A stretch of 59,809 nt of DNA from an uncultured Oscillospiraceae bacterium (GTDB lineage Bacteria; Bacillota; Clostridia; Christensenellales; CAG-314). The stretch lies in contig CAZDLE010000002.1 in NCBI GenBank assembly GCA_964506035.1, positions 1 through 59,809 on the forward strand. The letters run 5' to 3'. The stretch's first letter is position 1. Each line of letters starts with the position of its first letter. A program made the translations under genes and the position numbers. Positions 15,882-51,715 of this stretch are shown in pieces. The notes under the pieces were generated by a model. The model was not told the DNA's origin. It searched no databases and was given only the letters and a program-made list of their open reading frames with translations.

Positions 15882-15882
15882 A

Positions 15883-19783: not shown

Positions 19784-20037
19784 TACTGTCCATCCTTACG
19801 GTAGATTTTTTTGTTCACGTGTTCGCGTTCGTTTCCTAAAGGTCGTCACGCAAACGATATTTTGTATAGTATACCACACAAAAGGGTGTTTTGACAAGTC
19901 TTATTGCGTGATTGCCTTTGCGCGTACTGCTATTTTGGGAAAAGTTGCAAAATTAGTGGGATAGCCGTTGCAATCGACGGTAAAAAATGGTAAAATACTT
20001 GCAAGCGGACGGGCGGAACCGTCCAAAGGACCAGCAA

Positions 20038-26200: not shown

Positions 26201-26641
26201 TACAACGCCAACGTCGAGCAAATACAAAGCACGATTTCTCAACTTGTGGAACAGGGCAAAATGGATACGCAGTACGCAACACAACTGGATGTAAATTTGA
26301 TTTTCCAAACTTTGCAAAATCCCGCTCTAAAACAAATTTTGCAGGGCGGAAAAGTGTATCACGAAATCCCCTTTATGTTGTACGCCCCCTACGACCAACT
26401 TGCCAAAGACAAACGGTTTAGCGACGACGTTATGTTGCAGGGCGTTATCGATTTGCTGGTTGTTGGAAAAGACAAAGCAACCGTTGTAGACTTCAAATAC
26501 ACGTCCCGCAGTGACAAGGTTTTTGAGCGTTACCCCTATCAACTTGCCAGCTACAAGCTTGCCGTAAAGGATATTTGCGGAATAGATAACGTAGATGCCT
26601 ACGTCCTTTCCATTGCAGATAACAAACTTATCAAAATGTAA
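23231..26641 (+). CDS. addA: ATP-dependent helicase/nuclease AddAB subunit AddA (UvrD/Rep family)
   Basis: Walker A SAGTGKTTVM, VDEYQDTN, and a C-terminal nuclease motif GVIDLLVV...VVDFKYT. 1136 aa. Confidence 0.93.
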   Translation: MSRKYTPEQQNVIDFPRNNAPMQNMLVSASAGTGKTTVMIERIARLISQGVNVDQIVVVTFTTLAAAEMKTRLLAKLSQLADNARVREQLEKLDTAYICTLHSFCSDLLRNYFYVVDIDPSFTILDGITAANLKKNAVDELFKEYFAEKDDDFLRLYKIYATGRKEENFKQLVLQLYEFSRNVVDFEQWYQNVRKTYLNNDNTGPLMSILVQDVSSSINHYKAQLQQLVQRCLAEGGTQIAQVCQANLDNLNKLNPLDAQSLFNDFCKFDWQRLVAKNRKVYVAMDDVVIEEKIRDDFKAIDESFKKKREVYQKLTNNKTLDVMWQEMAQSVQLSDKLVEMVCKFQNKFFALKKRRGVVDFSDLEHLTLQVLRDDESAESIKQKYKLVFVDEYQDTNPVQEAIVNALANADHLFMVGDIKQSIYGFRGCDPSFFATKHRKYLQNDGGVAEQLNDNFRSNKDILDFVNLVFNQIMTEDLGQVDYRQNAQLRGQTERTLKQVPSVRISFLPKSTVDEPICGYYDVTKRTDFLNESAQAKAIANRIKSYVGMAYKDKDGNAKRIQYGDIVVLMRGMTARATEIYNALVDCNIPVTAGFKLDGFASKEVREIVNLLRVIDNPYNDVYLVGVCLCSFGDLSETDLADVRLNTSGRVPFFDRLCEYVQLYQNETAQKIANLLKLLDDLRFYSRGASVCEVVLKVIEQTNFDLFVQGLPNGGLRLNKLNAFVDSLKGASYAESIDKFLYYIDETDEARSEQALATTNAVRIMTMHASKGLEFPIVILAGMETMFNFDSPGDLHYVLHSTDLGIATNYYDFDHMKRCETIGSFACSLYNKRKQREEEMRLLYVAMTRPKYVLDIFASADQKQLDKMPNQPQNANSNLDWLLYALKNTLPTLQCQSDSLTVEVVDEVWSTSSIQQDFLCEQQTDVAQIVEKLNYEYPFQDQTKMPTKLVSSALDKQFLDDDESVTAPVIVQDDKNKIGTAYHTVYQFVDYNANVEQIQSTISQLVEQGKMDTQYATQLDVNLIFQTLQNPALKQILQGGKVYHEIPFMLYAPYDQLAKDKRFSDDVMLQGVIDLLVVGKDKATVVDFKYTSRSDKVFERYPYQLASYKLAVKDICGIDNVDAYVLSIADNKLIKM

Positions 26642-34077: not shown

Positions 34078-35301
34078 ATGAAAAATGTTATCGTAGGACA
34101 ATCAGGCGGACCAACCGCTGTTATCAACGCAAGCTTGCTTGGTGTCTACAAACAAGCGGTACAGCTTGGCGCAAACAACGTGTACGGCATGCTCTACGGC
34201 ATACAAGGTTTGTTGGAAAACAAAATAGTAAACCTTGGCGATAGTCTTGCAACGGAGCATAATCAACAACTACTTCGTCGCACGCCGTCGGCATTTTTGG
34301 GCTCCTGCAGATACAAGCTTCCCGAACCTGCTTTGGGTAACGAAGTGTATCAAAAGATTTTTGCAATCTTGCAACAATTGGATATTTTTGCATTTTTCTA
34401 CGTCGGTGGAAACGACTCCATGGATACAATCAAAAAACTTTCCGCCTATGCGCAAATGGTGGGTAGCGACGTTCGTTTTGTGGGCGTTCCCAAAACTATC
34501 GACAACGACCTTGCCATAACCGACCATACCCCCGGCTACGGTTCCGCTTGCAAATATATTGCAACCACCTTGAAGGAACTTGTTCGCGACGGACTTGTGT
34601 ACGAAAACGCCGTGATATCCGTTGTGGAAATCATGGGTCGTGATGCCGGCTGGCTAACTGCTGCCGCAAGCCTTGTCAAGGGGGACGATTGCGAAGGTGT
34701 CGAAATGATTTTACTGCCGGAAACGGCTGTGGATATCAACCACTTTTTACAACGTGTTGGCAAAATTGTTGCGCAAAACCGCTCGGCAGTTATCGCCGTG
34801 TCGGAAGGCGTAAAGGTTGCCGATGGACGGTATGTTTGTCAGCTTGCCGACGAAGGCACTCAAAAGGATCCCTTTGGGCACGTCCGTCTTGCCGGAACGT
34901 CTCGCTACCTTGCCGATTTGATTGCAAAAACGTACGGATGTCGCACAAAAAGTATGGAACTGTCCTTTATGCAACGTGCAGCAAGCCACTGTCAATCGCT
35001 AACCGACGTGATGGAATCGCAACGCCTTGGCGAGGGTGCAGTGCAGTTTGCTTTCGACGGTAAAACGGGCATCGTTACAACACTCGTGCGCACAAGCAAC
35101 GCTCCCTATCACTGCGAAGTGCATTTTGCCGATGTCAACAAAATTGCAAACGCCGTCAAAAAAATCCCGACCGAGTGGATCGATGCGGAAAACTACACCG
35201 TCAAGCAACCGCTTGTAGACTATATTTGTCCCCTTGTGGAAGGCTATCTCGAACCCATCTGGCACAACGGACTTGCCCAGCACCTAATTTTGAAAAAGTA
35301 A
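34078..35301 (+). CDS. pfp: Phosphofructokinase family protein, probably the PPi-dependent type
   Basis: GQSGGPTAVINAS, GGNDSMDT (not GGDGS), PKTIDNDL and MGRDAGWL. 407 aa. Confidence 0.8.
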   Translation: MKNVIVGQSGGPTAVINASLLGVYKQAVQLGANNVYGMLYGIQGLLENKIVNLGDSLATEHNQQLLRRTPSAFLGSCRYKLPEPALGNEVYQKIFAILQQLDIFAFFYVGGNDSMDTIKKLSAYAQMVGSDVRFVGVPKTIDNDLAITDHTPGYGSACKYIATTLKELVRDGLVYENAVISVVEIMGRDAGWLTAAASLVKGDDCEGVEMILLPETAVDINHFLQRVGKIVAQNRSAVIAVSEGVKVADGRYVCQLADEGTQKDPFGHVRLAGTSRYLADLIAKTYGCRTKSMELSFMQRAASHCQSLTDVMESQRLGEGAVQFAFDGKTGIVTTLVRTSNAPYHCEVHFADVNKIANAVKKIPTEWIDAENYTVKQPLVDYICPLVEGYLEPIWHNGLAQHLILKK

Positions 35302-35562
35302 CGATATTTAGATTGATGTATCAAAAAATATGTTTAGATAGTTAATTATCGTGGCGCATCAAAAGTAGATACGTAGTTGGATGCGTCCAATTTTACGTAT
35401 CTAATAATAGACATCGAGTTTGATATATCTAAAATAGATATTTGGTTTTCTCCAAAAGGGATATTTCGATAGATATTTAGTTTAACAAATCAAAAATAAG
35501 TCTTTGGTTCGACACGTCAAACAATAGATACCTTGTTTAATACGTCACGAAAAGATAATTTA
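35302..35562. repeat. Array of ~8 degenerate 27-40 bp units (AGATAnnTnGTTTnA...TCAAAA)
   Basis: Examples are agatatttagtttaacaaatcaaaaat, agataccttgtttaatacgtcacgaaa, agataatttatttaatacgc and agacatcgagtttgatatatctaaaat. Similar units occur at 31480-31600. Confidence 0.6.
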
Positions 35563-35589
35563 TTTAATACGCAAAAAAACGACAGTCAA
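35563..35589. repeat. Left flanking inverted repeat of the island (putative attL outer arm)
   Basis: tttaatacgcaaaaaaacgacagtcaa is the imperfect reverse complement of 50998-51030. The 15-mer core aaaaacgacagtcaa is exact. Confidence 0.7.
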
Positions 35590-35805
35590 TAAAAAACACC
35601 CCAAAAAGTTGTCCAACCTTAGTTAGGTATTCTTGGGGAAAATTACACAATAATATTTAACCAAATAGCAGGTTCGTTAGAAAGAGTTCGAGAAATCGGA
35701 CTCTTTTTCTCTCTAAAAATTTTCTATAATACTTCTGTTTATTGGTTGTTTCGACAAAAAAATCAATAGGGACAAACAAAAGGACAAAAATAGGGACATT
35801 TTATG

Positions 35806-35834
35806 TTGACATTTTTATTTTTTAATGTTATAAT
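35806..35834 (+). promoter_or_regulatory. Sigma-70/SigA-type promoter of the first island gene
   Basis: TTGACA (35806-35811), 17-nt spacer, TGtTATAAT (35826-35834). GGAGG lies 7 nt before ATG 35865. Confidence 0.7.
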
Positions 35835-35864
35835 CATAGTGTCATTAAAAAGTGGAGGTTTAAG

Positions 35865-37214
35865 ATGATAAATTTTGGACACGAAACAGAAGAATTAGAG
35901 TTTAAGAAAACAACGGGCGAGCTGCACGATGCAATGAAAGATATTGTGGCGATATTAAATAAACACGAAAACGGCGTTTTGTATTTTGGTATTGCTCCTA
36001 ATGGCGATGTTAAAGGATTGCAGGTTTCAGAATCAACTTTAAGAGATGTTTCTCGAACAATTTTCGAAAGCATTAAGCCGCAATTATATCCGCAAGTACA
36101 AAAAGTTACCATAGACGGTTGTGATATTATTGAAGTGAAATTTAGTGGAAAATATAAGCCCTATTCTGCTTATGGCAAATATTATATCCGAGTTGCTGAT
36201 GAAAGTCGTGAACTAACCCCTGCAGAATTGAAAGAAATGATGTTAATTAATGAATATTCTGAACATTGGGAGCAGCACGCAACATCCTTTTCAATAAATG
36301 ACGTAGATGAAAAAGCACTTAAAGACTTCTACTCTCGCGCTACTGCCTGTGGACGACTTCCCGACGATGGATACGATGCCGAAAAACTGCTTAATAAGCT
36401 TGGGGTGTTGAAAGACGGACAACTTAATAACGCAGGTTATGTTTTATTTGGAAATAATGGTCCTGTAACGTTAAAGATGGCACTATTCGCAACGGACGAA
36501 AAATTAACGTTTTTAGATATAAATAGAACGGAAAACAACATTTATAATCTTGTTGATGAAGCGCTTACATATATTAAGAAAAATATTCGTTGGCGCGCGG
36601 AAATTGGAAATGTTACAAGAGAGGAAATTCCCGAAATACCGTTGAAAGCTCTCCGTGAAATTGTAGTAAATAGTTTTGCTCACGCTCAATACGGAACGTC
36701 TACCCAACACGAAATAGACGTGCATCCGGGAAAAGTTGTTATATATAATCCGGGAGAATTTCCACCTGAGTTTTCCCCTGAGGATTTTGCTAACAAGAAT
36801 CTTTCGTCTATAATACGAAATGAATTAATTGCGAAAGTGTTATATTTATGCCACGATATAGAGTCTTTTGCAAGTGGATTTAAGAGAGTTTATACACTTT
36901 GCAAAGAAAACGACGTTAGTTGTTCCTATGAAAAAACGCCTATAGGTTTTTCATTTATATTTTTAAGAAATGACCCTAATGCGATAATTAATGTCCCTAA
37001 ACGAGAATATAATGTCCCTATAATCCTTTCAAAAACCGAAAAGTTAGTTTACGAAATATTAAAAGAACAACCTTCATTAACAAGAGAAGAGCTTGCAATT
37101 GAAATATCTAAGACAACAAAAACAGTACAACGTGCGCTTGACTCATTAAAAACAAAAGGATTAATTATTCGGGTAGGAACAAATCGTAAAGGTTATTGGA
37201 AAACAACAGATTAA
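35865..37214 (+). CDS. AlbA_2 (Schlafen-like) / HATPase_c_4 / C-terminal winged-HTH protein (putative regulator or sensor)
   Basis: N-terminal ETEELEFKKTTGEL...NGVLYFGIAPNGDVKGLQ (AlbA_2 pattern), LREIVVNSFAHAQY...VVIYNPGEFP (RecG-C-like HATPase_c_4), and a C-terminal LVYEILKEQPSLTREELAIEISKTTKTVQRALDSLKTKGLI wHTH. Confidence 0.85.
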   Translation: MINFGHETEELEFKKTTGELHDAMKDIVAILNKHENGVLYFGIAPNGDVKGLQVSESTLRDVSRTIFESIKPQLYPQVQKVTIDGCDIIEVKFSGKYKPYSAYGKYYIRVADESRELTPAELKEMMLINEYSEHWEQHATSFSINDVDEKALKDFYSRATACGRLPDDGYDAEKLLNKLGVLKDGQLNNAGYVLFGNNGPVTLKMALFATDEKLTFLDINRTENNIYNLVDEALTYIKKNIRWRAEIGNVTREEIPEIPLKALREIVVNSFAHAQYGTSTQHEIDVHPGKVVIYNPGEFPPEFSPEDFANKNLSSIIRNELIAKVLYLCHDIESFASGFKRVYTLCKENDVSCSYEKTPIGFSFIFLRNDPNAIINVPKREYNVPIILSKTEKLVYEILKEQPSLTREELAIEISKTTKTVQRALDSLKTKGLIIRVGTNRKGYWKTTD

Positions 37215-37220
37215 TTTTAT

Positions 37221-37258
37221 AAATATGACGGAGGCTGTCATATTTAGTGTGTTATAAT
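37221..37258 (+). promoter_or_regulatory. Palindrome AAATATGAC-N7-GTCATATTT abutting an extended -10 (TGtTATAAT)
   Basis: Hairpin/operator-like inverted repeat at 37221-37245. TGtTATAAT is at 37250-37258. It lies in the 72-nt gap between the wHTH gene and the 899-aa gene. Confidence 0.5.
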
Positions 37259-37286
37259 TGCTTGAATTATACTAACGAGGTGTCGT

Positions 37287-39986
37287 ATGGAAGAACTTAA
37301 GAATAAAATTCTACAAGCAATGCAATCTGATTTCATTGGTGACGTGCAATTCGATGAAGACGAAATCGCCCAAATGAAGGAAGACTGTAAGGAATTTTAT
37401 CGTGCAGCTCAAAATACTTGGAGTAAATATTATAAAAGAGAAGATATTTGCGAATTAATTGTTTTAATAGTGAATATTGCAAAGTCTTGGAACGATGAAA
37501 GCGAAGGTCGTTTTTGGACTAAACTTTTTGGCGAAATATTTGAGGACTCATCTATCTCACCTATTAAGTTTTATAATGATTTTGAGAACTGTTTAAATGC
37601 TTATAATAAAACTTTATTTCGCTCTAAAGAAAACAAAAGGATGTTTAGAGAAGTTTTCTTATTGCACGCATTTGCGCCTGAAAAATCGGGAGAATCGTTT
37701 ATTCGATTATTGTGGAATTGGTATAGCGATATCGATGTTATAAACTTTGACCACCAACATAATGATGCTTTATATACGCAACTCGCATCATTCTTAAACA
37801 AAGAATTTGGTGGAAAAACTGATTTAGATGAAGACGTAGACTTTGAAGGTAAAATCTATTCAATAAAATCTTCCTTCAAATATTTATTCGCCCAAAACAA
37901 AGAAGCTGGAATCGTATTATTAGATTCTTTATTCTCAAACTTTGACGACATCTATTTTAACGGCAAGTACAATAAAGATTCTTTTTATGCCGAAAGATGT
38001 TCTGCTATCGTTGAAAAAATTCTACAAGAAAGTAATATCAAAACTGAACGCCGTAAAAGACACCATACGGAGCATATTGTTAGTGATTATAGCAAAATAT
38101 ATGCAGGATATGAAATAGACGAGCAAGGTGTAGCAAGCTTGTTTATCCCTGAAATTCATGCGATAGATGAAGAAGCTGAAGATTATTCGTTAGAAGTTCT
38201 TAATAATGAAGAAGTAGTTTATTCCGATGAAGGCTATATTGTAGGGAGTAATATTAAACGGAAAATTAAAAGGATTTCGATACCTTTCTCTTCTTTCATT
38301 AACAAACTTGAAGACAAAATTGATATAGTGATAAAATTATCCGTAATAAGAGACGGCGATGAAGTAGAAATCTTCAACTCGAAAAAGTCTTTATTTCGTG
38401 ACTTTATTTTATTCAAAGGTAATAGAGAAACTCGTTTGGATAATTGCAAGCCTAATGTTTCTTATTATTTAGTTCACACACCGAGCCTTAATATAAGCAA
38501 GTTTACAAATTGCGCTGTTAAGGATATTAATGCCTATACAAGTACGATATTTACCGAAGAAAACGATTATATATCAACGAGCAATCAACAAGTTTTCTTC
38601 AACATTGTACCAAAAGACTCTCACGTAATTTTAGACGGAAGACGATACGAAAACACTATATACCAAAAAGATGGTGTAGAATATCCCTTCTTTAAGTCGG
38701 TTAAAACCATAAGCGTTATTATTCCAAAAACTACAAATGCAAACAACATCACCTTAACTGTGGACGATGAAAAACACTATCCCTTATCTGCTTGTGCTGT
38801 TGCTAACGATAATACTTTTATTATTGATACCGCTAAAATTAACACCGATGGTAGCGGTGCGCATAAAATTTTATTTTCTGATGTGCGTCAAAAGAAATTG
38901 CTCCATACTGTTTTATATTACATTACACGTGATGTAGGTGTGCACGTTACGGGAAGCAATTATCTTTTCGGTGCGAAAACAGTTAATGCTTTCTTGCAAG
39001 CCCATAACGGTGGTGAGTCCGCAACTTTATATTCCATTAATCCCCGCGTTGGCAGTGAAAAGGTTGAATTTGATTATGACGAAGGAACTATAATAATAGA
39101 CCTACCATATGTAAAATGGCGCATTGATGACGGCGAATGGAATTATTCCGAATTAGACAAAAAGATTTGGCACAAAGAACCGTTTTTACATAGCAACTGC
39201 ATTGTGGAGATTGAAAACAATTCTCAACTTACAACGGAATTATTTATAAACGACCAAAGAATCGAATTATCTAAAAGCGGTAAGTATTTGCTTGGCGATG
39301 CTTTAACTGAAGCAAACGCTAATAGAGAAAATGCGATATATTTATCTATAAATGGATTCAATCATCTCTTATTTGAAGTTCTGAATAAAGAAGAACTGTC
39401 GGATTTTGATATTGATATCGAAGAAAAGACTGTAGATTTCTCTCGTGGATTTATTGGCGATGACGATGCAAGATTTTTAATGCGTTTAACTAATGAAAAC
39501 AATGAATACGAACTTGAAACTTATATTACAGACACCTTTGAAGAAGACATAATAGATGGCGAATATGACGTTGAAATTTATCTCGTAGATTTCTTTGACA
39601 ATAAAACACTTTTACTTGACGGCTGTTTTGTTATAGGTAATCCCGACAAGTTTTGTTTTGATGATTGTAGAATTGTATTAACCAAATTTAATAGACCTAA
39701 CGCAGGTAAGGTCAAATTCCAAAATTCTTATATTGCTGACTTAAAATACTTGAGAGAAGAAACAATTGGTAGCGTATATTCGGGTGTTTTAATTGATAAA
39801 AGAATGAAATATGACGTGGAAGTATATAAAAAGGACGAACGCTCGTTAAAATTCTACTTCGTTAAAGGTGAAGACTTATTACCTATAGGCTTTGATTTAA
39901 CGAAAAATGCTTTCACTCAATCAACTATTGATGATAAGAATATAATTTCTTGTACGTCTTGCTACTATGATGTTGAGGAGATTTAA
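37287..39986 (+). CDS. Large hypothetical protein (899 aa), partner of the DUF1998 helicase; possible DruH analogue
   Basis: Long uninterrupted ORF with RBS gaggtg. Its stop is 2 nt before the helicase start. I recognise no catalytic or binding motif. The first ~270 aa look helical and the rest looks beta-rich. Confidence 0.85.
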   Translation: MEELKNKILQAMQSDFIGDVQFDEDEIAQMKEDCKEFYRAAQNTWSKYYKREDICELIVLIVNIAKSWNDESEGRFWTKLFGEIFEDSSISPIKFYNDFENCLNAYNKTLFRSKENKRMFREVFLLHAFAPEKSGESFIRLLWNWYSDIDVINFDHQHNDALYTQLASFLNKEFGGKTDLDEDVDFEGKIYSIKSSFKYLFAQNKEAGIVLLDSLFSNFDDIYFNGKYNKDSFYAERCSAIVEKILQESNIKTERRKRHHTEHIVSDYSKIYAGYEIDEQGVASLFIPEIHAIDEEAEDYSLEVLNNEEVVYSDEGYIVGSNIKRKIKRISIPFSSFINKLEDKIDIVIKLSVIRDGDEVEIFNSKKSLFRDFILFKGNRETRLDNCKPNVSYYLVHTPSLNISKFTNCAVKDINAYTSTIFTEENDYISTSNQQVFFNIVPKDSHVILDGRRYENTIYQKDGVEYPFFKSVKTISVIIPKTTNANNITLTVDDEKHYPLSACAVANDNTFIIDTAKINTDGSGAHKILFSDVRQKKLLHTVLYYITRDVGVHVTGSNYLFGAKTVNAFLQAHNGGESATLYSINPRVGSEKVEFDYDEGTIIIDLPYVKWRIDDGEWNYSELDKKIWHKEPFLHSNCIVEIENNSQLTTELFINDQRIELSKSGKYLLGDALTEANANRENAIYLSINGFNHLLFEVLNKEELSDFDIDIEEKTVDFSRGFIGDDDARFLMRLTNENNEYELETYITDTFEEDIIDGEYDVEIYLVDFFDNKTLLLDGCFVIGNPDKFCFDDCRIVLTKFNRPNAGKVKFQNSYIADLKYLREETIGSVYSGVLIDKRMKYDVEVYKKDERSLKFYFVKGEDLLPIGFDLTKNAFTQSTIDDKNIISCTSCYYDVEEI

Positions 39987-39988
39987 AA

Positions 39989-42900
39989 ATGTTTAATCCG
40001 GCTGATGCTTCAAATAGAATAAAAGAAGAATTTATTGATTATATCTCTACGTCGTTTTCTGTTGCCGACCAAGAATACGATAAATTATTCAAGGAAAAAT
40101 TAAACCAACACGGTGTAATTTCAAAGGGGCCCCTTGTTGATATAAAGGATATTTTTAGAAGTGGAAAAACTTTGGCTAACTTGTGCTCCGATAACGTTTT
40201 GTCTCCACTCTTTCACAAAATAGAAAAAAACAAGCCTATCGGGGATAAATATAAACATAAATTTCCTGTTAATAGACCGCTGTATTTGCATCAAGAAAAG
40301 GCAGTAAACGTAATTACTACAAACAAGAAAAATGCAGTAGTTACAACCGGTACAGGTTCGGGTAAAACGGAATGTTTCTTAATCCCTGTTATTAATGAAT
40401 TATTAAGGGAAATAGAATCCGGAACATTAAAACCCGGCGTTAGAGCGTTATTAATCTATCCGATGAACGCGCTTGCAAACGACCAAATGAAGAGACTAAG
40501 GGAATTACTTATGTATTATCCCCAAATTACTTTTGGCGTATATAATGGTGATACTGAAAAAACCGAAGAAAAGGCTATTGCAAAATATCAAGATTTGCAT
40601 TCATTGGAAGCGTGTGATGAACTTAAACAGCCGTTAGAAAATGAGTACATTTCAAGAGAAAAAATGAATGAAACGCCACCGCATATTTTATGTACTAACT
40701 ACGCTATGTTGGAACATATGATGTTACGCCCTGAAAACGACAAAATTTTCGCTAATTCAGATTTTAAATTTGTCGTTCTTGACGAAGCGCATATTTATAC
40801 AGGTGCTACGGGAATGGAAACGGCTTTGCTTTTGCGTAGATTAAAAGCAAGGATTAAAACTAGTACTAAAACCCAATTTATTTTAACTAGTGCAACACTT
40901 GGGGAAGAAGGAAAATCCGAGAAGGAAATTATCAACTTTGCTGAAAATTTGTGTGGCGAAACTTTTGACGAAACAAGTATTATATACGGCAAAAGAGAAA
41001 CGCTCGTTTTTGATGGTGAGATTAATAATTATCCTATTGAGTTGTTTGAAGATTTAGCGACTGCAAATACAGACAAGTATGCAGAAGTTTTCACTCGTTT
41101 TGGTATCCCTTATGATTCTACCATCCCTTTTGCTCATAATCTTTATAACTTGTGTCGAAATAGCATTTATTACAAAAGAATACGTGAAGAATTAAGACCG
41201 CCTGTTGATATTGATTTATTAGCAAACGTATTAAATGCAAACAAAAATCAAGCCATTTCGTTTATCCACGTCTGCACGTTAGCGGAGAAAAATGGTAAAT
41301 CTTTAATTGATGCAAAATATCATTTTTTTCTTAGAGCATTAGAAGGTTTATACACTACATTATTTGGCAATAAGCAATTGTTTTTAGAAAGAAGAAATAC
41401 GGCAACTTTCGATAATAAACAGATTGCTTGTTTTGAACGCGCTGTTTGTAGAAACTGTGGCGAACTCGGTATTGTAGGAAAAACAGAAAAGCAAGGAAAA
41501 TTAGATAAATTAGTCCTTGCAACTCAATATGATGAAGAGACTAGATTTTTTCATATCAAATCTACTACCGAAGATGAATTTGAAGAGTTTGATTTTGAAG
41601 GTAACGAAGAAATCGAAGATGAAGAAGTCGTAAAAGTAAAAGAAAAAAGTTATAAAGAATATTACTTGTGCCCCGTTTGTGGCGCAATTACCGAAAAGGA
41701 CGATGGTAAGCCAAGATGTGATTGCGGAGTTTTACCAATAATTGTATCTGAGTACGTTAACTCTGATGCAAAATGTCCTAAGTGTCAAGGTGGAAAATAT
41801 AGAAGATTTTACATAGGCGCAGAAGCAGCTACCGGGGTTCTTGCTACTACATTATTTGAAGAATTACCATCAAAAACCATTAAAGATTATGGTGAAGACG
41901 GAGTTGAATTAGAGTTCGAAGGCGGAAAGCAGTTTTTAGCCTTTTCCGACAGCAGAAGCGAGGCAGCTTTCTTTGCTTCGTATTTGGATAAATCATACAA
42001 AGAATTCTTGCGTAGACGTGGTCTTGTTCAAGTTCTTCAAGATATAAAAGGCGATTTGTTAGACGAACCGATGAACTTATCGGAATTAGCTGACGAATTA
42101 ACAAAATTGTTTGCAAGCAAAGAAACATTTAAGGAAGAACTAACAGCGGTTCTTACTCGTAGAGAGTTAAAACGTATTTCGTTAAAGAATGCTTGGATGG
42201 CTATCCTTACGGAACTTGTATATGCAAGAAGACGTACTAGTCTTGTTTCTTTGGGTAGAATTAAATTTGAATACATAGGAAACAACGAGAAAATCGTAAC
42301 GGCATTAAGTAAAAAATACAACTTGGACGCAAAAATTTGCAAAGAGACATTGGATTATCTTGCTCTTACATTTGCTTATTTCGGAGCCTTGCAAATTGAT
42401 GACGATATAATTGATGCTGATGAACGAAAATATATTTTCTACACCGACAAGCAAAAAGCAGTAATATTGCAAAAAACGGCATCTACGGATAGATACGTTA
42501 TGAGTTGGAAAGCGCGTAATCGTGAAGGAAAAGTAGATACTTATTATCCTAATAGTCGTGTGCGCTTAATCGCAAGCATTTTAAAGTCGGACGAAAAACG
42601 AGCAAATGAATTTTTGGAAGATTATTTTAATAAATGGTTAATTAAGCCTGAAAATAAATATCACTTGGTTCGTGGCAACGGGAATATCTACTATATGCCT
42701 ATTGAAAATTATCAGGTCCGCGTATATGGAGATGAATCGGCGCATTGGTATAAATGTGATAAATGTGGCAAGGTTTCCGTTTACAATATAAACAATAAGT
42801 GTTTAGAAAATGGTTGTGGCGGTAATTTGTTTGAAATACCCCCTGAAAAGTTGTTTGAAAACAACCACTATTTAAGGTTGTATCAAAAGAAAGATTTAAC

Positions 42901-45148
42901 AGCATTATTGATAAAAGAACATACGGCACAATTATCAAGAGAAGAAGGATTAAAATTCCAAACACAATTTGAGAAGAACCATATCCACGCATTGTCCTGC
43001 TCAACTACATTTGAAATGGGTGTAGACGTTGGTGAGTTGGAAACTGTTTTCTTAAGAAACGTTCCACCTACGGCTGCAAACTACGCTCAACGTGCAGGTC
43101 GTGCAGGTAGAAGTAAAAACTCGGCAGCGTATTCGCTCACTTATGCGAAATTAAGTTCCCACGACTTTACGTACTTTAATGAGCCTACAAAAATTATTGT
43201 AGGCGAAGTTAAACCGCCTGTTTTCAAAATAGACAATCGAAAAATAGTTTTGCGACATATCTATGCCGTTGTTTTAAGCTACTTCTTTAAGAGAAACCCT
43301 GAAATCTTTAACAAAAACAAGGCAGAAGCGTTTTTAGATAATGGTGGCTATGAATTATTATTAGACCTAATAAAAGTCTCTTCTCCTGAGAGAGATTCAC
43401 TATATGATTTGTTGTCAAAATCAATTCCAAATGTATCTTCTTATAATTGGGAAGAAGAATTTGTCGGAGACAACGGTATCCTTAAATGTGTTATTGAAGA
43501 ATATAAAGAAAATGTAAAAGAAATACAAGCGATTATCGATATTTGTTATGAAGAACGAAATGCAGATAAAGCCAAGCGTGCGGAACGTTCACTTGCAAAG
43601 TATAAAGCTAAAGAACTTATTGATTTCTTTGTCCGCAACAATATTTTACCTAAATATGGTTTCCCTATCGACACGGTAGAATTAGACGTTACAACGGATG
43701 AACATCAAAGACAAGAATTGCAATTGTCAAGAGATTTGAAAATGGCGATTTCTGAATATGCTCCGGGTGAAAAGGTTATTGCAAACAATAAAATGTATAC
43801 AAGTAGATACATTAAAAAGTCTTTCTTTAACAACAGAATGGACTATCACACTTCTTATGTTTGTCAATGCGATAACTGTCAAACTTGGAATTATAGCATT
43901 AACGACCCAAGAGAATCCGATGAACTTGTAAAATGTGTTGCTTGTCATAAACCTATCACCAAAGGGAAATGGGATGACGCAATCGAACCAAGAGCAGGAT
44001 TTATTGCTGAACATAGAGCTGAAGAGGTTCCTATGTCTCGTCCGGATAAAATTTACCATAGTCAAGATTCTTATATTGGCAACGGTAAAAAGATGGACGA
44101 ATTTTTGTTCTCTATAAACGATAGAGATATAATTTTAAAGTCTAGTGAAAACGACTCAATTATGGTTACTTCCCACACCAAGTTTTACGTTTGTAAAAAA
44201 TGTGGGTATACGTATGGTTTCCACGATATAATTAGAGATGAATCGGGCAAAAAAGATAAAGATGCTATCAATGCTATCACGAAACGTTCTCCATACATTA
44301 TTGTAAAACGCAAACATAAAAATGTACACGACCATTACTGTAACAATACTTATTTTTACCCGTTTGTTTTAAATCACACCTATAAAACGGACGTTGTTTT
44401 AATGGATTTCCAAGAATACAACGGCGAAGAAAAAACAATGTTGTCTATTCTATATGCATTGCTGAATGCTATGTCCGATGTGTTAGGTATAGATAGAAAC
44501 GATATTGGCGGAAGTTTAAAAGCCACTTTTGATAGAGATGTTGGTGATATTAGATATTCGCTTGTCTTATATGATACAGTTGCAGGTGGTGCAGGTCACG
44601 TACGTAGATTGTTAAATTCTACTGTTTTGAGCCAAGTGTTTAATAATGCACACAACGCAATGAAACATTGCCTTTGCGATACTTCTTGTTATAACTGTTT
44701 AAGAAGTTATTCAAATCAAAGAGTTCACGAAAAACTCGATAGACATTTAGCAGAAGAATTTTTATCTTCCTATTTAGGTGAAGCTACAGAACTAGTTATC
44801 CGTCAAAACCAAGAAGTTAAAGAATTAAAATTATTATCGGACGGGTTAAATATAAAAACTGAAGATTACGATTATATTTTCTCTCTGCTTGACGATGACT
44901 CTGAAGTTACACAAAGACTAAGTGAATTATTTATAAATCAATCTTTGCCTAAGTCTGATTTTAACGATATAGGATTCAAAATAGATGATGAAACAGGCTA
45001 TGCTAATTTATTGTGGAAAGACAAAAAAGTAATGTTGTTTACTAAAGACAACGAAAATGGTTACGTTTTAGCTAAAAATAGTAATTATCGTTGTTTTATA
45101 TTGGATGAAACTTTTAACTTAACGTTGTTTTTAAAAGCGTTAGACTAA
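39989..45148 (+). CDS. DEAD/DEAH-box SF2 helicase with multiple zinc ribbons and a C-terminal DUF1998 (MrfA-type Zn-binding) domain; DruE/DrmAB-like
   Basis: LYLHQ, TGTGSGKTECFLIP (motif I), YPMNALANDQ, VLDEAHIY (II), TSATL (III), FEMGVDVG...QRAGRAGRS (V/VI). CxxC pairs are CRNCGELG, CPVCG...CDCG, CPKCQGG, CDKCG...NGCGG, CDNC...CVAC and CKKCG. The terminal module is YDTVAGGAGH...CLCDTSCYNCLRSYSNQRVHEKLDR. Confidence 0.9.
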   Translation: MFNPADASNRIKEEFIDYISTSFSVADQEYDKLFKEKLNQHGVISKGPLVDIKDIFRSGKTLANLCSDNVLSPLFHKIEKNKPIGDKYKHKFPVNRPLYLHQEKAVNVITTNKKNAVVTTGTGSGKTECFLIPVINELLREIESGTLKPGVRALLIYPMNALANDQMKRLRELLMYYPQITFGVYNGDTEKTEEKAIAKYQDLHSLEACDELKQPLENEYISREKMNETPPHILCTNYAMLEHMMLRPENDKIFANSDFKFVVLDEAHIYTGATGMETALLLRRLKARIKTSTKTQFILTSATLGEEGKSEKEIINFAENLCGETFDETSIIYGKRETLVFDGEINNYPIELFEDLATANTDKYAEVFTRFGIPYDSTIPFAHNLYNLCRNSIYYKRIREELRPPVDIDLLANVLNANKNQAISFIHVCTLAEKNGKSLIDAKYHFFLRALEGLYTTLFGNKQLFLERRNTATFDNKQIACFERAVCRNCGELGIVGKTEKQGKLDKLVLATQYDEETRFFHIKSTTEDEFEEFDFEGNEEIEDEEVVKVKEKSYKEYYLCPVCGAITEKDDGKPRCDCGVLPIIVSEYVNSDAKCPKCQGGKYRRFYIGAEAATGVLATTLFEELPSKTIKDYGEDGVELEFEGGKQFLAFSDSRSEAAFFASYLDKSYKEFLRRRGLVQVLQDIKGDLLDEPMNLSELADELTKLFASKETFKEELTAVLTRRELKRISLKNAWMAILTELVYARRRTSLVSLGRIKFEYIGNNEKIVTALSKKYNLDAKICKETLDYLALTFAYFGALQIDDDIIDADERKYIFYTDKQKAVILQKTASTDRYVMSWKARNREGKVDTYYPNSRVRLIASILKSDEKRANEFLEDYFNKWLIKPENKYHLVRGNGNIYYMPIENYQVRVYGDESAHWYKCDKCGKVSVYNINNKCLENGCGGNLFEIPPEKLFENNHYLRLYQKKDLTALLIKEHTAQLSREEGLKFQTQFEKNHIHALSCSTTFEMGVDVGELETVFLRNVPPTAANYAQRAGRAGRSKNSAAYSLTYAKLSSHDFTYFNEPTKIIVGEVKPPVFKIDNRKIVLRHIYAVVLSYFFKRNPEIFNKNKAEAFLDNGGYELLLDLIKVSSPERDSLYDLLSKSIPNVSSYNWEEEFVGDNGILKCVIEEYKENVKEIQAIIDICYEERNADKAKRAERSLAKYKAKELIDFFVRNNILPKYGFPIDTVELDVTTDEHQRQELQLSRDLKMAISEYAPGEKVIANNKMYTSRYIKKSFFNNRMDYHTSYVCQCDNCQTWNYSINDPRESDELVKCVACHKPITKGKWDDAIEPRAGFIAEHRAEEVPMSRPDKIYHSQDSYIGNGKKMDEFLFSINDRDIILKSSENDSIMVTSHTKFYVCKKCGYTYGFHDIIRDESGKKDKDAINAITKRSPYIIVKRKHKNVHDHYCNNTYFYPFVLNHTYKTDVVLMDFQEYNGEEKTMLSILYALLNAMSDVLGIDRNDIGGSLKATFDRDVGDIRYSLVLYDTVAGGAGHVRRLLNSTVLSQVFNNAHNAMKHCLCDTSCYNCLRSYSNQRVHEKLDRHLAEEFLSSYLGEATELVIRQNQEVKELKLLSDGLNIKTEDYDYIFSLLDDDSEVTQRLSELFINQSLPKSDFNDIGFKIDDETGYANLLWKDKKVMLFTKDNENGYVLAKNSNYRCFILDETFNLTLFLKALD

Positions 45149-45161
45149 AGGAGATACGTTT

Positions 45162-46871
45162 ATGGCGATTATGATACCAAGCATACCGCAAGATTTCTCA
45201 CCCGAAAGTCGTGAAGGTGAAATGTTTTTAAGTTTGCAAAAATTACCTGATGATTATTACGTTTTTCACTCATTCCGTATTATCAAACTTGAAGATAATA
45301 CTTGGAAAGAAAATGAGATTGACTTCGTAATCTTTAATAAAGACAAGGGCTTGCTTTGTTTAGAAGCAAAGGCAGGCGACGTTTATTGTGAACGCGGTAT
45401 ATGGCATTATGGCTCGGGAAAGGAAATGCGTGATCCGTTTGCCCAAGCAAATTCTAACAGATGGAAGTTATCCCAATACATGGAAGAGTTTTATCAAACC
45501 CAAGAAATTAAGCGTCATTGTAAAATTTTAAGTGGCGTTTGGTTTCCGGGGATAGACAATAATAAACTTTCAAGATTGGCTCTTCCTTCTAACGCTATAA
45601 AAGAAGCCGTTTTAACGAGTGACGATTTAGATAATCCTTTAGATGCAATCGAAAGAATCTTTTCTATTCAAGTTCCCGTTAAAGTTTATGGTGAAACTTC
45701 TTTAGTAGAAACATCTTTAACAAGAAGTGAAGTAGAATCGCTTTTGCAAAATGTTTTATGCCCAACTTTTAATATTTTACCTTCAAAAACTTTAGAATTA
45801 GATTATAAAAGAGAAAAATTCAATGCACTTATAACAGAACAATGTAATCTCTTAAATTATCTTGAAGAGCAAAGAAGCGCAGTAATAAATGGTGCTGCGG
45901 GTACGGGCAAAACTATGATTGCCGTTGAAAAGGCAAGAAGACACGCAAACAAGGGCGAAAAAGTATTGTTTCTCTGCTTTAATATAAAATTGAAAGAGTA
46001 TTTAGAAAAAACTTATGCTTACGAGAATGTTGATTACTATACAATTGATAAATTTGCTTGTAAACTATGTCATTCTATCGAACCAAACTATGATGATTTG
46101 GAAAACAAATTAATTTGTTTGGCTGTTGACGGCGGTTTTCCTTATTTACATATCATAATAGATGAGGGACAAGATTTTGGTCAAACAAGAATGAAAAGTG
46201 AAGAAATTTTCTCTACTTTAGAAGAAATAGTTTTGTCTACCAAGACAGGGACTTTTTATGTATTCTACGACAAATTGCAGTTAGTTCAAAGTTTCAATGT
46301 GCCAAAGTTTATCGAAAATGCAGATTGTAGATTGACTTTATATAAAAACTGTAGAAACACAAAGAAGATTGCAGAAACGTCCTTTAAGCCGATAGGGAAA
46401 ATTCCAAAACTTTTTGATTTCGCTATACCTGGTGTTCTCCCCGAAATCTCTTTTGTTTCGGAAGAAGATATTAAAGAGCGCATTGACTTAACTATAAAAC
46501 AAGCAAATGCTAACGGCATTAAAGACATTCAAATTTTAAGTTGTGTCCCTAGTGGCGAAAGTATGTTAGAGAGTTATCTTGAAAATGATTTCTATAACTA
46601 TAAAGGACAAAAAATACCATTCACTACTTGTAGAAAATTTAAAGGATTAGAGGCAGATAAGATAATTCTTGTGGATGTTAATAAAAACTCAATTATGGAC
46701 AACAATAAGTTATTCTACGTTGGTTCATCAAGAGCAAGGTTTGAGTTAAGTATTTTGGCAACTCTTTCTGATAGCGATTGTGTTGAAATCTTACAAAGCC
46801 TTAACTCTATCGTCAAGAAAAACAATCCACAATTAACGCTTTCAAAAGTGTTGGGCTGCAAATTAATTTAA
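45162..46871 (+). CDS. NERD-domain nuclease fused to an SF1 (UvrD/AAA_19-like) helicase
   Basis: N-terminal NERD pattern GEMFLSLQKLPDDYYVFHSF...EIDFVIFNKDKGLLCLEAKAG. Also Walker A NGAAGTGKTMIAV, Walker B IIIDEGQDF, YKNCRNTKKI, KGLEADKIILVD and FYVGSSRARFEL. RBS aaggag, 13 nt after the helicase stop. Confidence 0.88.
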   Translation: MAIMIPSIPQDFSPESREGEMFLSLQKLPDDYYVFHSFRIIKLEDNTWKENEIDFVIFNKDKGLLCLEAKAGDVYCERGIWHYGSGKEMRDPFAQANSNRWKLSQYMEEFYQTQEIKRHCKILSGVWFPGIDNNKLSRLALPSNAIKEAVLTSDDLDNPLDAIERIFSIQVPVKVYGETSLVETSLTRSEVESLLQNVLCPTFNILPSKTLELDYKREKFNALITEQCNLLNYLEEQRSAVINGAAGTGKTMIAVEKARRHANKGEKVLFLCFNIKLKEYLEKTYAYENVDYYTIDKFACKLCHSIEPNYDDLENKLICLAVDGGFPYLHIIIDEGQDFGQTRMKSEEIFSTLEEIVLSTKTGTFYVFYDKLQLVQSFNVPKFIENADCRLTLYKNCRNTKKIAETSFKPIGKIPKLFDFAIPGVLPEISFVSEEDIKERIDLTIKQANANGIKDIQILSCVPSGESMLESYLENDFYNYKGQKIPFTTCRKFKGLEADKIILVDVNKNSIMDNNKLFYVGSSRARFELSILATLSDSDCVEILQSLNSIVKKNNPQLTLSKVLGCKLI

Positions 46872-46883
46872 TTTTTTCAAAAG

Positions 46884-46919
46884 ATAGGCAGATGTCCAAG
46901 AACGTGGACATTTGCCTAT
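46884..46919 (+). terminator. 15-bp-stem hairpin after the cassette
   Basis: ataggcagatgtcca-agaacg-tggacatttgcctat starts 13 nt after the stop. The downstream T-run is weak. Confidence 0.55.
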
Positions 46920-47527
46920 TGACTTTTATAGATTCTTATGATAAAATAGAATTACGAACACGAGCATATGTTTGAAATATATTTTGTGGGTGTATATATA
47001 ATTAAGGGGTATTCCCCTTGATTTAACTTGCTTGGGGCAGCAGGCTTTGTAAGTGTACGTTTTCGTGCGCTTGTGGGGGATTTTCTCCCGTTTACCCGAA
47101 GCCGTTTTACATAAAGGGAAACAAAACGGTTTTTTTAGGGCTTGATTGTCGTACAATTTTTTACGACAATGTGCCGTCCTTTCGCTTTTATCGAGTGAAA
47201 GGCTTGGAAAGACTGACCAACTTTTCAAGTAGGCGCGCCAACGTTCAAAAAACGGGGGTTGGCGATAGGTCTATTTTGTGGTACAAATTTTTATGTACTA
47301 CACTCTTACAACTTCATATTCGGATATTAAATCCGTGCGAGGTAGAAACGCTATAAGCGTGTTTTAATTCGTACGGATTTTTTGTCCCTTTAGGTCGGTG
47401 GTATTTTTATCAGCGACTTTTTTGCGCCCAAAAATCAAATTTAGTAGGAAATCAAAATGAAAAATTATCATCATTATTACCCGCCGTGAATGTTAAGCAA
47501 ACGGCAAGCAAAACTTTAAGAAAATCA

Positions 47528-47575
47528 GTAAAGTGTAGCCCACTATACTTTGCTCGGCAAAGTGTGGGCTCTGCG
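47528..47575. promoter_or_regulatory. oriT-like inverted repeat upstream of the relaxase gene
   Basis: gtaaagtgtagcccactatactttgc-tcg-gcaaagtgtgggctctgc. The minus-strand reading aaagtatagtgggctacactttac resembles, from memory, the pMV158-type MobV oriT core. Confidence 0.45.
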
Positions 47576-47617
47576 AGGCTAAATAACGATTAAAAAATAA
47601 CAAGGAGGAAAACGAAA

Positions 47618-48642
47618 ATATCATATTTAGTATGCCATATGGAGAAATACCATAAACAAGAAGTTTCGCCCGTTGAAGAAGAAAATGAACGTGACGAAAC
47701 CTTTGAAGCGGACAATCCGCAAATAGATAGCGAGCGAACAAAAGCCAATTATCATATGAGCTTTAACACTCTTACTTACACCGAGTTTATCAATAAACGA
47801 TTCAACGAATTGGGCTTACGTCCACGTAAGGATGCCGTTGTTATGAACTCTTTCGTGGTAGGCTCGGACAAAGCATTTTTCGACGGCTTATCTAAAATTC
47901 AACGATACAGTTTCTTTTCGGACTGCACCAAATTTTTTGAAGAGAGATACGGAGAAGAAAATATAATGTCGGCGGTAGTTCATTTAGATGAAACGACTTC
48001 TCATATGCACTTAAATCTTATCCCCATCACTCCCGACGGAAGATTGTGTAGCAAGGACTTGTTTGATAAGCCCAAACTACAACAACTGAAAACCGACTTT
48101 TACGAAGCCGTTGGAAAGAAATATGGTTTGCAACGTGGTAAGGAAGGAAGTCAAGCAAAACACCTATCCACCGCCGAATACAAAGCCAAGAAGATTATAG
48201 AAGAAGCAGAAGAAATTCGACGTGAAAACCAAGTGTATGCCGATGCTTTGGAAGAAGCCAAAAACGGAGAGATACCTAAAAAGCGTGGCAAGTTGCAAGA
48301 ACAAGTGGTAGCGTTAACGGTAGAAAATAAAAGTTTAACTGAGCGTCTTGACCGTTCTATGCAAGATACGCTTGATATGGTTAAGGAAAACAAGAAGATT
48401 AAAGCAGAACAGTCGAAAGACGTTAAATACGCCCAAGTCGGTAGATACATAGCAAGTAATGCACCGAATTTATGTAGAAATATCTTAAACGGCGCAAGTC
48501 TACAAAGGTGTTCTTCTCTGCTGTGGAAGATTTATGTAAACCGAGTGTAACGGCTCAAGTTCCCCGACTTCAACAAATAGAAGCGGAGATTGAAGAAGAA
48601 CGTGTAAAACACGAAAGTAAAAACAAAAATTATAAATTTTAA
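47618..48642 (+). pseudogene. mob: MobV-family (Mob/Pre) relaxase, apparently decayed
   Basis: It has the Mob_Pre motif VHLDETTSHMHLNLIP. The conserved N-terminus ISYLVCHMEKY begins with ATA (47618) 10 nt after GGAGG instead of ATG. The C-terminal ~50 aa (KVFFSAVEDLCKPSVTAQVPRLQQIEAEIEEERVKHESKNKNYKF) continue in another frame after about 48478. Confidence 0.7.
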
Positions 48643-48743
48643 CGGGATATTTTCTTTTCCCTTTCCAAAAGAGCTTGACTTAAAGCGTAATATTAAGTAA
48701 AATATGTATTAATACGATACAATATTTTCGGAGGATAAGTTCA

Positions 48744-48977
48744 ATGGAAAGAAAAGAAGATACTCCTTTGCGCAAGACACGCAGGAAGTATGAAGAAAAG
48801 AATAAAGAAAAGAGAAAGCAAGCAAGCGGAACGTTCGGTACTATGATACCGAGAACACTATTTGATGAAATAAACGCCTTTCTCGAAGAAAACGGGATAA
48901 CGAAAGTTCAACTCGTAAAAGAAGGATACGAAGCTTTAAAGAGTAAAAAAGAAAACGGTACTCTAAATAAAGAATAA
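48744..48977 (+). CDS. Small basic protein, possible ribbon-helix-helix type accessory/relaxosome protein (tentative)
   Basis: 77 aa with a Lys/Arg-rich N-terminus, then TLFDEINAFLEENGITKVQLVKEGYEAL. RBS ggagg. Confidence 0.5.
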   Translation: MERKEDTPLRKTRRKYEEKNKEKRKQASGTFGTMIPRTLFDEINAFLEENGITKVQLVKEGYEALKSKKENGTLNKE

Positions 48978-48993
48978 GACCGTTGCTTCCAAA

Positions 48994-50908
<1,915 letters not shown>

Positions 50909-50997
50909 AGCAAAAAGGGAATCTGAGTGGGTTGGTTTTATACCAACTTACTCAAAATTTCCCAAGAGCACCCCACTTTTGGGGTGCACGTCACAAT

Positions 50998-51030
50998 TTG
51001 ACTGTCGTTTTTGTTTTGTTTTGTATTAAA
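50998..51030. repeat. Right flanking inverted repeat of the island (putative attR outer arm)
   Basis: ttgactgtcgtttttgttttgttttgtattaaa is the reverse complement partner of 35563-35589. Confidence 0.7.
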
Positions 51031-51078: not shown

Positions 51079-51715
51079 GCGTAAAGCCATTGTTTTTTTT
51101 GCTATATAGTTAGGTATTTCGATCTTTTATGCTATTAATTAAGTTGTTTAACCGCTTTTATTATTTCTGATGGATTGTTCGATTGTTTTGAGTGACTTTG
51201 TTTGTTTGCGTAAAGCCATTGTTTTTGCTATATCGTTATATATTTCAATCTTTTATGCTATTTATTAGCCTATTTAACCATTTTTATTATTTCTGATGAA
51301 TTGTTCAATTATTTTTAGCGACTTTGTTTGTTCGCGTAAAGCCATTGTTTTTTTTGCTATATAGTTAGGTGTTTCGATCTTTCCTACGCTATTAATTAAG
51401 TTGTTTAATCGTTTTTATTATTTCTGATGGATTGTTCAATCATTTGAGCAACTTTGTTTGTTCGCGTAAAGCCATTGTTTTTTGCTATATCGTTATATAT
51501 TTCAATCTTTTATGCTATTAATTAAGTTGTTTAACCGCTTTTATTATTTCTGATGAATTGTTCAATTATTTTGAGCGACTTTGTTTGTTCGCGTAAAGCC
51601 ATTGTTTTTGCTATATAGTTAGGCATTTCGATCTTTTATGCTATTAATTAAGTTGTTTAACCGTTTTTATTATTTTTACTAAATTGTTTGATTGTTTTGT
51701 ACTATAGTTTATTCG
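51079..51715. repeat. Five tandem copies of a ~126-130 bp unit in alternating A/B subtypes
   Basis: Units start with gcgtaaagccattg at 51079, 51208, 51334, 51464 and 51591. Subtype A has gctatatagttaggtatttcgatc and subtype B has gctatatcgttatatatttcaatc. A degenerate partial copy at 51020-51078 abuts the island end. Confidence 0.9.

Follow-up and report, generated by a model that had tools for sequence, protein, structure and literature searches.

The cassette considered here lies in a 59,809-nucleotide stretch of DNA (contig CAZDLE010000002.1 of assembly GCA_964506035.1; hereafter the window) from an uncultured gut Christensenellales bacterium, Candidatus Scatosoma-like, and comprises four genes, of which genes 2-4 probably form a three-component anti-phage system of the Druantia family, built on a YprA/MrfA-like helicase with an MZB domain. 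We put the probability of this reading at about 0.72, with a mechanism that we infer by analogy. Druantia is widespread, and work on its mechanism has begun only in 2025-2026, for the E. coli III-A system alone, whose DruE has PLD domains of its own. The cassette offers a candidate answer to how compact DruE systems devoid of a nuclease attack phage DNA, namely through the product of a third gene, a NERD nuclease joined to a superfamily 1 (SF1) helicase, which is possibly docked on a tail of DruE. PADLOC v2.0.0 recognized only DruE in the cassette, giving gene 4 an unrelated label, and tools that require DruH would therefore probably miss or mislabel the system.

The conserved core of the cassette

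Judged by its profile matches, gene 3 is clearly a DruE. It matches the PADLOC DruE1 model at 8.1e-183 (residues 208-1626 on profile positions 257-1707 of 1776) and the DruE3 model at 7.5e-176, the latter profile being matched only up to position 1686 of 2055, and it also matches DruE2 and DruE4; it reaches about 600 bits on the DruE models, whereas the nearest helicase family in NCBIfam, with a cut-off of 874, gives it 131 bits. Pfam assigns it DEAD, Helicase_C and MZB/DUF1998 domains, and it carries a Walker A lysine (K126), a DEAH box at 265-268, several CxxC modules and the MZB domain at 1489-1571. Gene 3 is 44% identical over about 1640 residues to the 1609-amino-acid compact DruE of L015 (L and P labels denote the loci and proteins of our sample, for which 30+ related loci were collected) and about 27% identical, in patches, to the 2114-amino-acid DruE of E. 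coli III-A. The alignment with the E. coli protein ends at residue 1593 against position 1733 of 2114, before the PLD region, and gene 3 terminates about 126 residues past the last aligned position; no PLD or Vsr domain was matched in it by Pfam, and, on this evidence, the PLD nuclease domains that E. coli DruE carries are missing from gene 3. The DruE proteins of the three-gene loci (triads) end in a tail of about 110 residues with the motif GYADLxW..kv.lF..dN in their alignment, in which no conserved nuclease motif was seen and for which Pfam gave no match at E <= 10.

Gene 4 encodes the predicted nuclease-helicase. The PD-(D/E)xK core of its NERD domain (E52, D54 and E68-A-K70) is joined to a complete set of SF1 motifs (Walker A K250, DEGQD at 334-338, RKFKGLEAD and FYVGxSRA, motifs V and VI included), and the catalytic motifs are invariant across the family. 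The PADLOC model RTasNERD-Hel is matched over the full length (3.1e-53), and no reverse transcriptase open reading frame (ORF) was found in the island; the match to Nhi is partial (6.9e-8) and that to GajB is also weak and partial.

The order gene 2, DruE and NERD-SF1 helicase, with tight or overlapping junctions, recurs in 13 distinct loci of the close family at 35-96% gene 2 identity, and again in L035 (30%) and L037 (21%), the flanks being unrelated among all triad loci. Gene 4 comes after gene 3 in 15/15 distinct loci whose contig permits a check, and because it follows genes 2 and 3 in all of these, down to 21% gene 2 identity, it is, on the evidence of this conservation, part of one system with them. 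An earlier note on this DNA had suggested such a survey of co-occurrence, and the result is the co-conservation of gene 4 with genes 2 and 3. Within the triads the identities of gene 3 and gene 4 correlate (r = 0.98, n = 13, the loci not being phylogenetically independent), and in L008 a 93% match to the window runs through genes 2-4, with divergence just short of the end of gene 4. The sample of contexts is modest and the triads form one clade. The system is rare, with 5 loci in about 185,000 species-representative genomes, all from uncultured gut Clostridia (among them Candidatus Scatosoma and Christensenellaceae); tblastn searches of plasmids with gene 2 and with two tails gave no matches, and a scan of viral contigs yielded one useful locus. 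In L030 (10001-16268) the triad has decayed, each of its genes 2, 3 and 4 having internal deletions. The neighbours in other triad loci include Fic, Macro, methylase, WYL and recombinase genes, which are typical of mobile elements and defence islands. The triad of L037 (6479-20817) is preceded by an MTaX1 protein and a DNA methylase and followed by a MazG-like protein and a Schlafen-group-3-type helicase, a setting that looks like a typical defence island.

Searches of Pfam, PADLOC (E <= 10), NCBIfam and the PDB sequences returned nothing for the product of gene 2, and PHROGs gave no more than a match at chance level (E = 0.029); the reader of the earlier note could name no motif in it. Its AlphaFold (AF2) model, with a pLDDT (predicted local distance difference test) score of 88.5, is all-helical over residues 1-250 and nearly all beta-strand over the following ~630 residues; the N-terminal domain modelled alone has a pLDDT of 89 and a predicted template modelling (pTM) score of 0.88. 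The N-terminal domain alone found no PDB neighbour, and with Foldseek the whole model found only generic arrays of immunoglobulin (Ig), fibronectin type III (FN3) or macroglobulin type at TM-scores of about 0.1, among them cytokine receptors and complement C3 in the PDB and phage tail and baseplate proteins in BFVD; the PDB copy that was searched, which runs to April 2026, contains no DruH structure. As a reference, the intact DruH-DruE locus of E. coli was recovered, its DruH scoring 1834 bits on the PADLOC DruH3 model, and no PADLOC DruH model was matched by gene 2 or by the seven remote relatives scanned. Relatives of DruH carry PF27205/PF27201, the 49 gene 2 relatives are without precomputed Pfam domains, and a profile-profile alignment of the two families with hhalign gave a probability of 0.14. 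By sequence, then, gene 2 does not qualify as a divergent DruH, a candidate identity rejected on the results of PADLOC (E <= 10), Pfam and hhalign, the last run both single-sequence and family-versus-family.

In its model, gene 2 resembles DruH only broadly, in having a helical head and an Ig-like array; the E. coli DruH has been described as comprising a globular/helical region at the N-terminus, Ig-like domains and, at the C-terminus, a domain that contributes to a pocket for single-stranded DNA and ATP (10.64898/2026.05.12.722862; PMC13192584). In the close family the N-terminal domain of gene 2 is the most conserved part (61% mean identity) and the central Ig region the most variable (down to 26-36% identity), and gene 2 has diverged faster than genes 3 and 4; DruH has likewise been reported to diverge faster than DruE (PMC13192584). 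It appears that the partner slot of Druantia can hold proteins of similar layout, a helical head and an Ig-like array, that share no detectable sequence homology.

A deep profile search extended the gene 2 family to 393 representative clusters. In L015 the tail-less compact DruE has the remote member P0067 immediately upstream of it, an arrangement of two genes like that of Druantia III; no NERD gene begins in the 200 nt of contig that remain after this DruE. In P0121, P0125, P0154 and P0190 (L016:868-5577) a UvrD-type SF1 helicase is fused to gene 2-like proteins, and other members of the family carry N-terminal repeats resembling the alphaCTD of RNA polymerase, which is a DNA-binding domain; these fusions and repeats tie the family to DNA and helicase function. 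As observations in their own right, the fusion protein of L016 is followed by a 1059-amino-acid superfamily 2 (SF2) helicase and a 438-amino-acid protein, possibly another system variant, and P0132 and at least 15 similar clusters (L017:432-5021) were noted alongside the gene 2-like fusion proteins.

The tail domain, the proposed mechanism and its alternatives

A hidden Markov model (HMM) of the tail matches the C-termini of two further MZB proteins, in both cases past the end of the respective PADLOC profile: in L039 the type I DruE (4e-19), and in L038 the DISARM protein DrmB (2e-10). It gave no further match among the proteins tested, which included the compact DruE of L015, with no NERD gene adjacent, and the DruE of E. 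coli. L038 (1302-11704) is a DISARM operon (methylase, DrmE, DrmA, DrmB) in which a gene 4-like helicase, 48% identical to gene 4, stands after DrmB, presumably where the PLD gene DrmC of DISARM usually sits. L039 (553-11704) is a full Druantia type I (DruD1 at 8e-19; full-length DruE1 at 1856 bits) with a gene 4-like helicase as an extra last gene, and the gene 4 homologues of the two loci have 48-50% identity. A further homologue, 33% identical to gene 4, is located after a DpdF-like helicase. The triad DruEs, the L039 DruE and the L038 DrmB are all followed by a gene 4-like helicase, and since the HMM matches only these MZB proteins, the tail, so far as this profile can tell, accompanies close homologues of gene 4 in three architectures. 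We tentatively suggest, at somewhat short of even odds, that the NERD-SF1 helicase and the tail form a portable effector module, in which the tail on an MZB protein recruits the nuclease-helicase, supplying or replacing the PLD/DrmC nuclease stage in otherwise unrelated YprA-helicase systems, the triad then being a Druantia type of its own that performs its killing step in trans. If so, effector modules are exchanged between YprA-helicase systems.

In E. coli III-A, DruE dimers engage exposed single-stranded DNA or 3'-tailed/forked DNA and unwind it 3'-to-5', DruE being described as a helicase-nuclease effector and DruH as a single-stranded-DNA-binding, ATP-inhibited sensor/regulator, possibly with nuclease activity (10.64898/2026.05.13.724758, 10.64898/2026.05.12.722862, PMC13192584). 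Across YprA systems the nuclease is fused to the helicase or encoded downstream, and the III-like branch is most often without a nuclease domain (Bell et al. 2025). By analogy, the nuclease-less DruE encoded by gene 3 would load on exposed single-stranded or forked phage DNA and unwind it 3'-to-5', and gene 2 would act as a sensor or regulator, as DruH does. Because gene 3 has no nuclease of its own, cleavage would be supplied in trans by the NERD-SF1 helicase, probably recruited via the C-terminal tail of DruE. Gene content, motifs, the inheritance of the three genes together and the co-occurrence of the tail are observed, and the roles and the docking are what we infer.

Several points weigh against this reading. 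Since gene 2 shows no detectable homology to DruH and its model is without the helical C-terminal domain of DruH, the DruH role is carried over to it by analogy only. The suggested docking role of the tail rests on co-occurrence in three architectures, and the tail could instead be a degenerate remnant of a Vsr-like nuclease, a guess from its motif. In L041 (700-11740), on the proteobacterial plasmid NZ_CP083555.1 of Leisingera sp. S132, a type I-like Druantia has a DUF4338 protein and a 2094-amino-acid DruE1 without a tail, and 13 nt after them comes a NERD-domain protein with 27% identity to gene 4. For an orphan gene 2 homologue (43% identity) in L027 (1119-3848), the next 10 kb downstream contain genes for iPGM and an M3 peptidase but neither a DruE nor a NERD gene. 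Finally, gene 3 is likened to III-B (published reference GIH50614.1) from the description of that branch, as set out in the last section.

The best of the other explanations, though an improbable one, is that an ordinary two-gene Druantia III-like pair lies beside an independent Nhi-like nuclease-helicase, gene 4, and an independent gene 1. The pair of L015 has no adjacent NERD gene; NERD/SF1 nuclease-helicases can occur alone or in other contexts (L040, L042), the gene 4 family is much larger than that of gene 2 (4842 vs 49 clusters), and Nhi is among the weak partial matches of gene 4. Against independence stand the order kept in all 15 checkable loci while the flanks change wholly, the covariation of genes 3 and 4, and the L008 match that breaks off only near the end of gene 4. 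The tail, moreover, is missing from the two-gene DruE but is found again in each case where another MZB protein has a close gene 4 homologue after it. According to the earlier note, an ordinary Druantia III with neighbours would show full DruH and DruE matches, with genes 1 and 4 not conserved alongside them; DruE is indeed matched and gene 1 is not co-conserved, but DruH is unmatched and gene 4 is co-conserved.

The earlier note had itself taken all four genes as one unit, which does not stand up to comparison and is a less probable reading still. In favour of gene 1 as a dedicated regulator or component, it sits 72 nt upstream of gene 2 on the same strand, and a same-strand gene of similar size, encoding an AAA_14/DUF4143 ATPase of about 426 amino acids and falling into two sub-families, occupies this slot in 10 other loci (L001:8735-9946, L010:1447-2727, L018:8687-9970, and L009, L019, L021, L022, L025, L030 and L031), which hints at a recurrent accessory function; AlbA_2-type and AAA_14/DUF4143-type genes are both enriched in defence islands. 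Nevertheless, homologues of gene 1 were found only in L012, a copy of the same element in the window's own strain, out of the 30+ related loci; the two slot occupants belong to unrelated protein families; several triads (L003, L004, L006, L026) have no comparable upstream gene; and gene 1 has its own consensus promoter and 3' hairpin, as gene 2 has its own extended -10. Because gene 1 is confined to L012, carries these signals and gives way to an unrelated ATPase elsewhere, it is, by this distribution and these predicted signals, a swappable, separately transcribed neighbour outside the conserved core, which therefore consists of three genes. It is at most an optional regulator or an independent defence gene, and the upstream-slot gene in general may be an exchangeable regulator or sensor, or merely a frequent hitch-hiker.

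That genes 2-4 are instead a DNA-repair or element-maintenance module, an MrfA/YprA-like helicase with an accessory nuclease-helicase serving replication or transfer of the element, is very unlikely. The YprA family does include the true repair helicases MrfAB (Bell et al. 2025), and the element here has genes for a relaxase and a recombinase. Gene 3, however, scores far higher on DruE models than on the nearest helicase family of NCBIfam; the triad is found in many unrelated settings, some with mobile-element genes and some without, and often has defence-type genes as neighbours; and close homologues of gene 4 form part of a genuine DISARM operon and of a Druantia type I operon. The earlier note's view of the locus as a defence cassette built on a DruE-type MZB helicase is, from profiles and loci, very probably right, its activity being predicted.

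Locus signals, mobile element and host setting

The features of the locus are collected in the table below. As the earlier note had described, the four ORFs lie on the same strand with gaps of 72, 2 and 13 nt, their coordinates being reproduced exactly, and its domain calls for genes 1, 3 and 4 were right. The strong promoter that it saw before gene 1 is the sole 12/12 consensus match among 55 promoter-like sites in 35300-47700, a total no higher than chance expectation. The extended -10 that it read before gene 2 is in place, directly after a 12-pair hairpin on the 3' side of gene 1, and the hairpin past gene 4, to which it had given a 15-bp stem, has 16 pairs including one G-U (-24.6 kcal/mol, z = -8.4). 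Rfam and tRNA scans of the window gave no matches.

Features of the cassette and of the element that carries it (window coordinates)
Feature	Position	Strand	Description
Integrative mobilizable element	35618..51012		carries the cassette; ~15.4 kb, low GC
Inverted repeat, left half	35575-35589		15 nt, AAAAACGACAGTCAA; partner at 50998-51012
Gene 1 promoter	35806-35834	+	TTGACA-17-TATAAT with TG extension
Gene 1	35865-37214	+	449 aa; AlbA_2 (Schlafen-like), HATPase_c_4 and winged helix-turn-helix (wHTH) (Pfam)
Hairpin between genes 1 and 2	37220-37246	+	12 pairs, -11.7 kcal/mol, z = -3.6; putative terminator or attenuator
Extended -10 before gene 2	37250-37258	+	TGtTATAAT, read from sequence; candidate separate promoter for genes 2-4
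Gene 2	37287-39986	+	899 aa; new all-alpha N-terminal domain, then tandem Ig/FN3-like beta-sandwich domains (model)
Gene 3	39989-45148	+	1719 aa; compact DruE, SF2 DEAH helicase with MZB (PADLOC, Pfam)
Gene 3 C-terminal tail domain	44816-45145	+	residues ~1610-1719 (alignment, tail HMM)
Gene 4	45162-46871	+	569 aa; NERD PD-(D/E)xK nuclease and SF1 helicase (Pfam, PADLOC)
Hairpin after gene 4	46883-46920	+	intrinsic terminator-like; closes the cassette
MobV-family relaxase	47639-48550	+	NCBIfam NF041497, 2e-47
Large serine recombinase	49253-50908	+	CcrB/XisF-like (NCBIfam)
Inverted repeat, right half	50998-51012		15 nt, TTGACTGTCGTTTTT; T-rich run follows

The cassette lies in a tract, across roughly 35.3-52 kb, where GC drops from about 0.44 to 0.33; this measurement agrees with the AT-richer island ending in a serine recombinase that the earlier note had recognized, to which a MobV relaxase, unmentioned there, can now be added. 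The left junction of the element is exact, and its right end lies somewhere in the interval from ~50.97 kb to 51.7 kb. The same element sits at a different site in L012, where the left flank is unrelated and the identity is 99.7% from window position 35619 onward. The island is bracketed by a perfect 15-nt inverted repeat, whose halves, when rejoined, form a strong hairpin of -20.4 kcal/mol followed by a T-run; the element may have inserted into a terminator, at its loop, that the host has downstream of the PPi-PFK gene. A 12-nt direct repeat was also found in the search for the element ends. Just past the serine recombinase gene lies an AT-rich tandem array (51079-51675; 126-bp unit, 4.7 copies, 86% matches), inside whose units the 12-mer TAGTTAGGTATT occurs, which is also the exact left end of the element (35620); the array could belong to the element, as iterons or att-like sites, or to the host.

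Otherwise the window consists of ordinary chromosomal DNA, with genes for MnmE/G, GltX, AddAB, TrkAH, UvrC and PPi-PFK on the left and for dUTPase and HtpG to the right of the island. The host AddB and AddA genes (19987-26641) are about 10 kb from the island. AddAB is the counterpart of RecBCD in Bacillota. RecBCD activity has been reported to be important for the synergy of Druantia III with Zorya in E. coli, and AddAB may bear on the behaviour of the system in its native host. A second, milder low-GC stretch (~0.39) at 15820-18543 encodes a 907-amino-acid protein with Listeria-Bacteroides repeat domains, probably a surface protein.

Comparison with known systems

Several described systems share parts of this architecture. 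DISARM, too, places a nuclease gene downstream of an MZB/DUF1998 helicase core, which there is split into DrmA and DrmB; the helicase of the window is unsplit, its matches to DrmA are weak and partial (1e-17), and the window has no methyltransferase, DrmE or PLD DrmC. The earlier note had set DISARM aside, rightly in that gene 3 is unsplit and no methylase or PLD ORF occurs in 35.3-52 kb. ARMADA type II (Bell et al. 2025) likewise has a YprA-family helicase operon that ends in an SF1 (GajB/UvrD-like) helicase with an N-terminal nuclease/toxin domain. This domain is RelE (ArmD), an RNase, whereas gene 4 carries NERD, a PD-(D/E)xK DNase fold; the window has no BrxHII-like helicase, PglX methyltransferase or RelE domain, and gene 3 is DruE-like with no active Vsr nuclease, unlike the Vsr-bearing YprA helicase of ARMADA. 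TALON, which is rare and found in Bacillati, combines a YprA-family helicase with a NERD-type PD-(D/E)xK nuclease (Bell et al. 2025). It differs in that here NERD is fused to an SF1 helicase and the main helicase is DruE-like rather than ARMADA-like, and in that the window is without TPR-CSD or TBP genes and without the RNase H-like C-terminus that the TALON helicase has in inactivated form, no Pfam match to TPR, CSD, TBP or RNase H being found in genes 1-4 or their neighbours. In composition gene 4 is the same as Nhi, RTasNERD-Hel and 'C3a187 NERD+UvrD', an N-terminal PD-(D/E)xK/NERD domain with an SF1 helicase; Nhi, however, is stand-alone, whereas gene 4 homologues at >=38% identity stood on their own in no examined locus and came in each case after an MZB-domain protein, and the RT-associated NERD-helicase goes with a reverse transcriptase that this island does not have. 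In the literature searched, no paper joins Druantia/DruE to a NERD-SF1 helicase, NERD appearing alongside these systems only in TALON, and no description was found of this arrangement or of DUF4143 + AAA_14 in defence.

The closest relationship is with Druantia itself. The DruE required in any type is present as gene 3. In type I, DruA (DUF4338), DruB, DruC and DruD lie upstream, and genes 1 and 2 have no PADLOC matches to DruA-D. The likeness to type III, which the earlier note had proposed for the core pair, is closer: a large SF2/MZB DruE stands directly downstream of one large partner without annotated domains, this partner has a predicted helical N-terminal domain and Ig-like array and evolves faster than DruE, and both systems are carried on mobile elements. 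That proposal holds for gene 3 and for the III-like pairing of genes 2 and 3, but not for gene 2 as a recognizable DruH, as it shows no sequence similarity to DruH/YjiT (STY4851 family; DruH3 models; PF27205/PF27201). The DruE of III-A, moreover, has two C-terminal PLD-like nuclease domains and gene 3 none. By description only, the compact (1719 amino acids), PLD-less gene 3, with no nuclease motif in its tail, can be likened to III-B, the III-like branch in which DruE is compact, without PLD domains and usually without a nuclease domain (Bell et al. 2025). Druantia III, A or B, consists of two genes, whereas here a third, the NERD-SF1 helicase, follows in every checkable locus, and the triad DruE has the extra C-terminal tail domain. 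The earlier note had left a choice between a divergent DruH and a new system; gene 2 is not recognizable as DruH, but its family also pairs, in L015, with a PLD-less compact DruE that has no NERD helicase beside it, and for this reason the core of genes 2 and 3 is a Druantia III-like pair. New here are a third gene that is obligatory and a tail domain carried by DruE.

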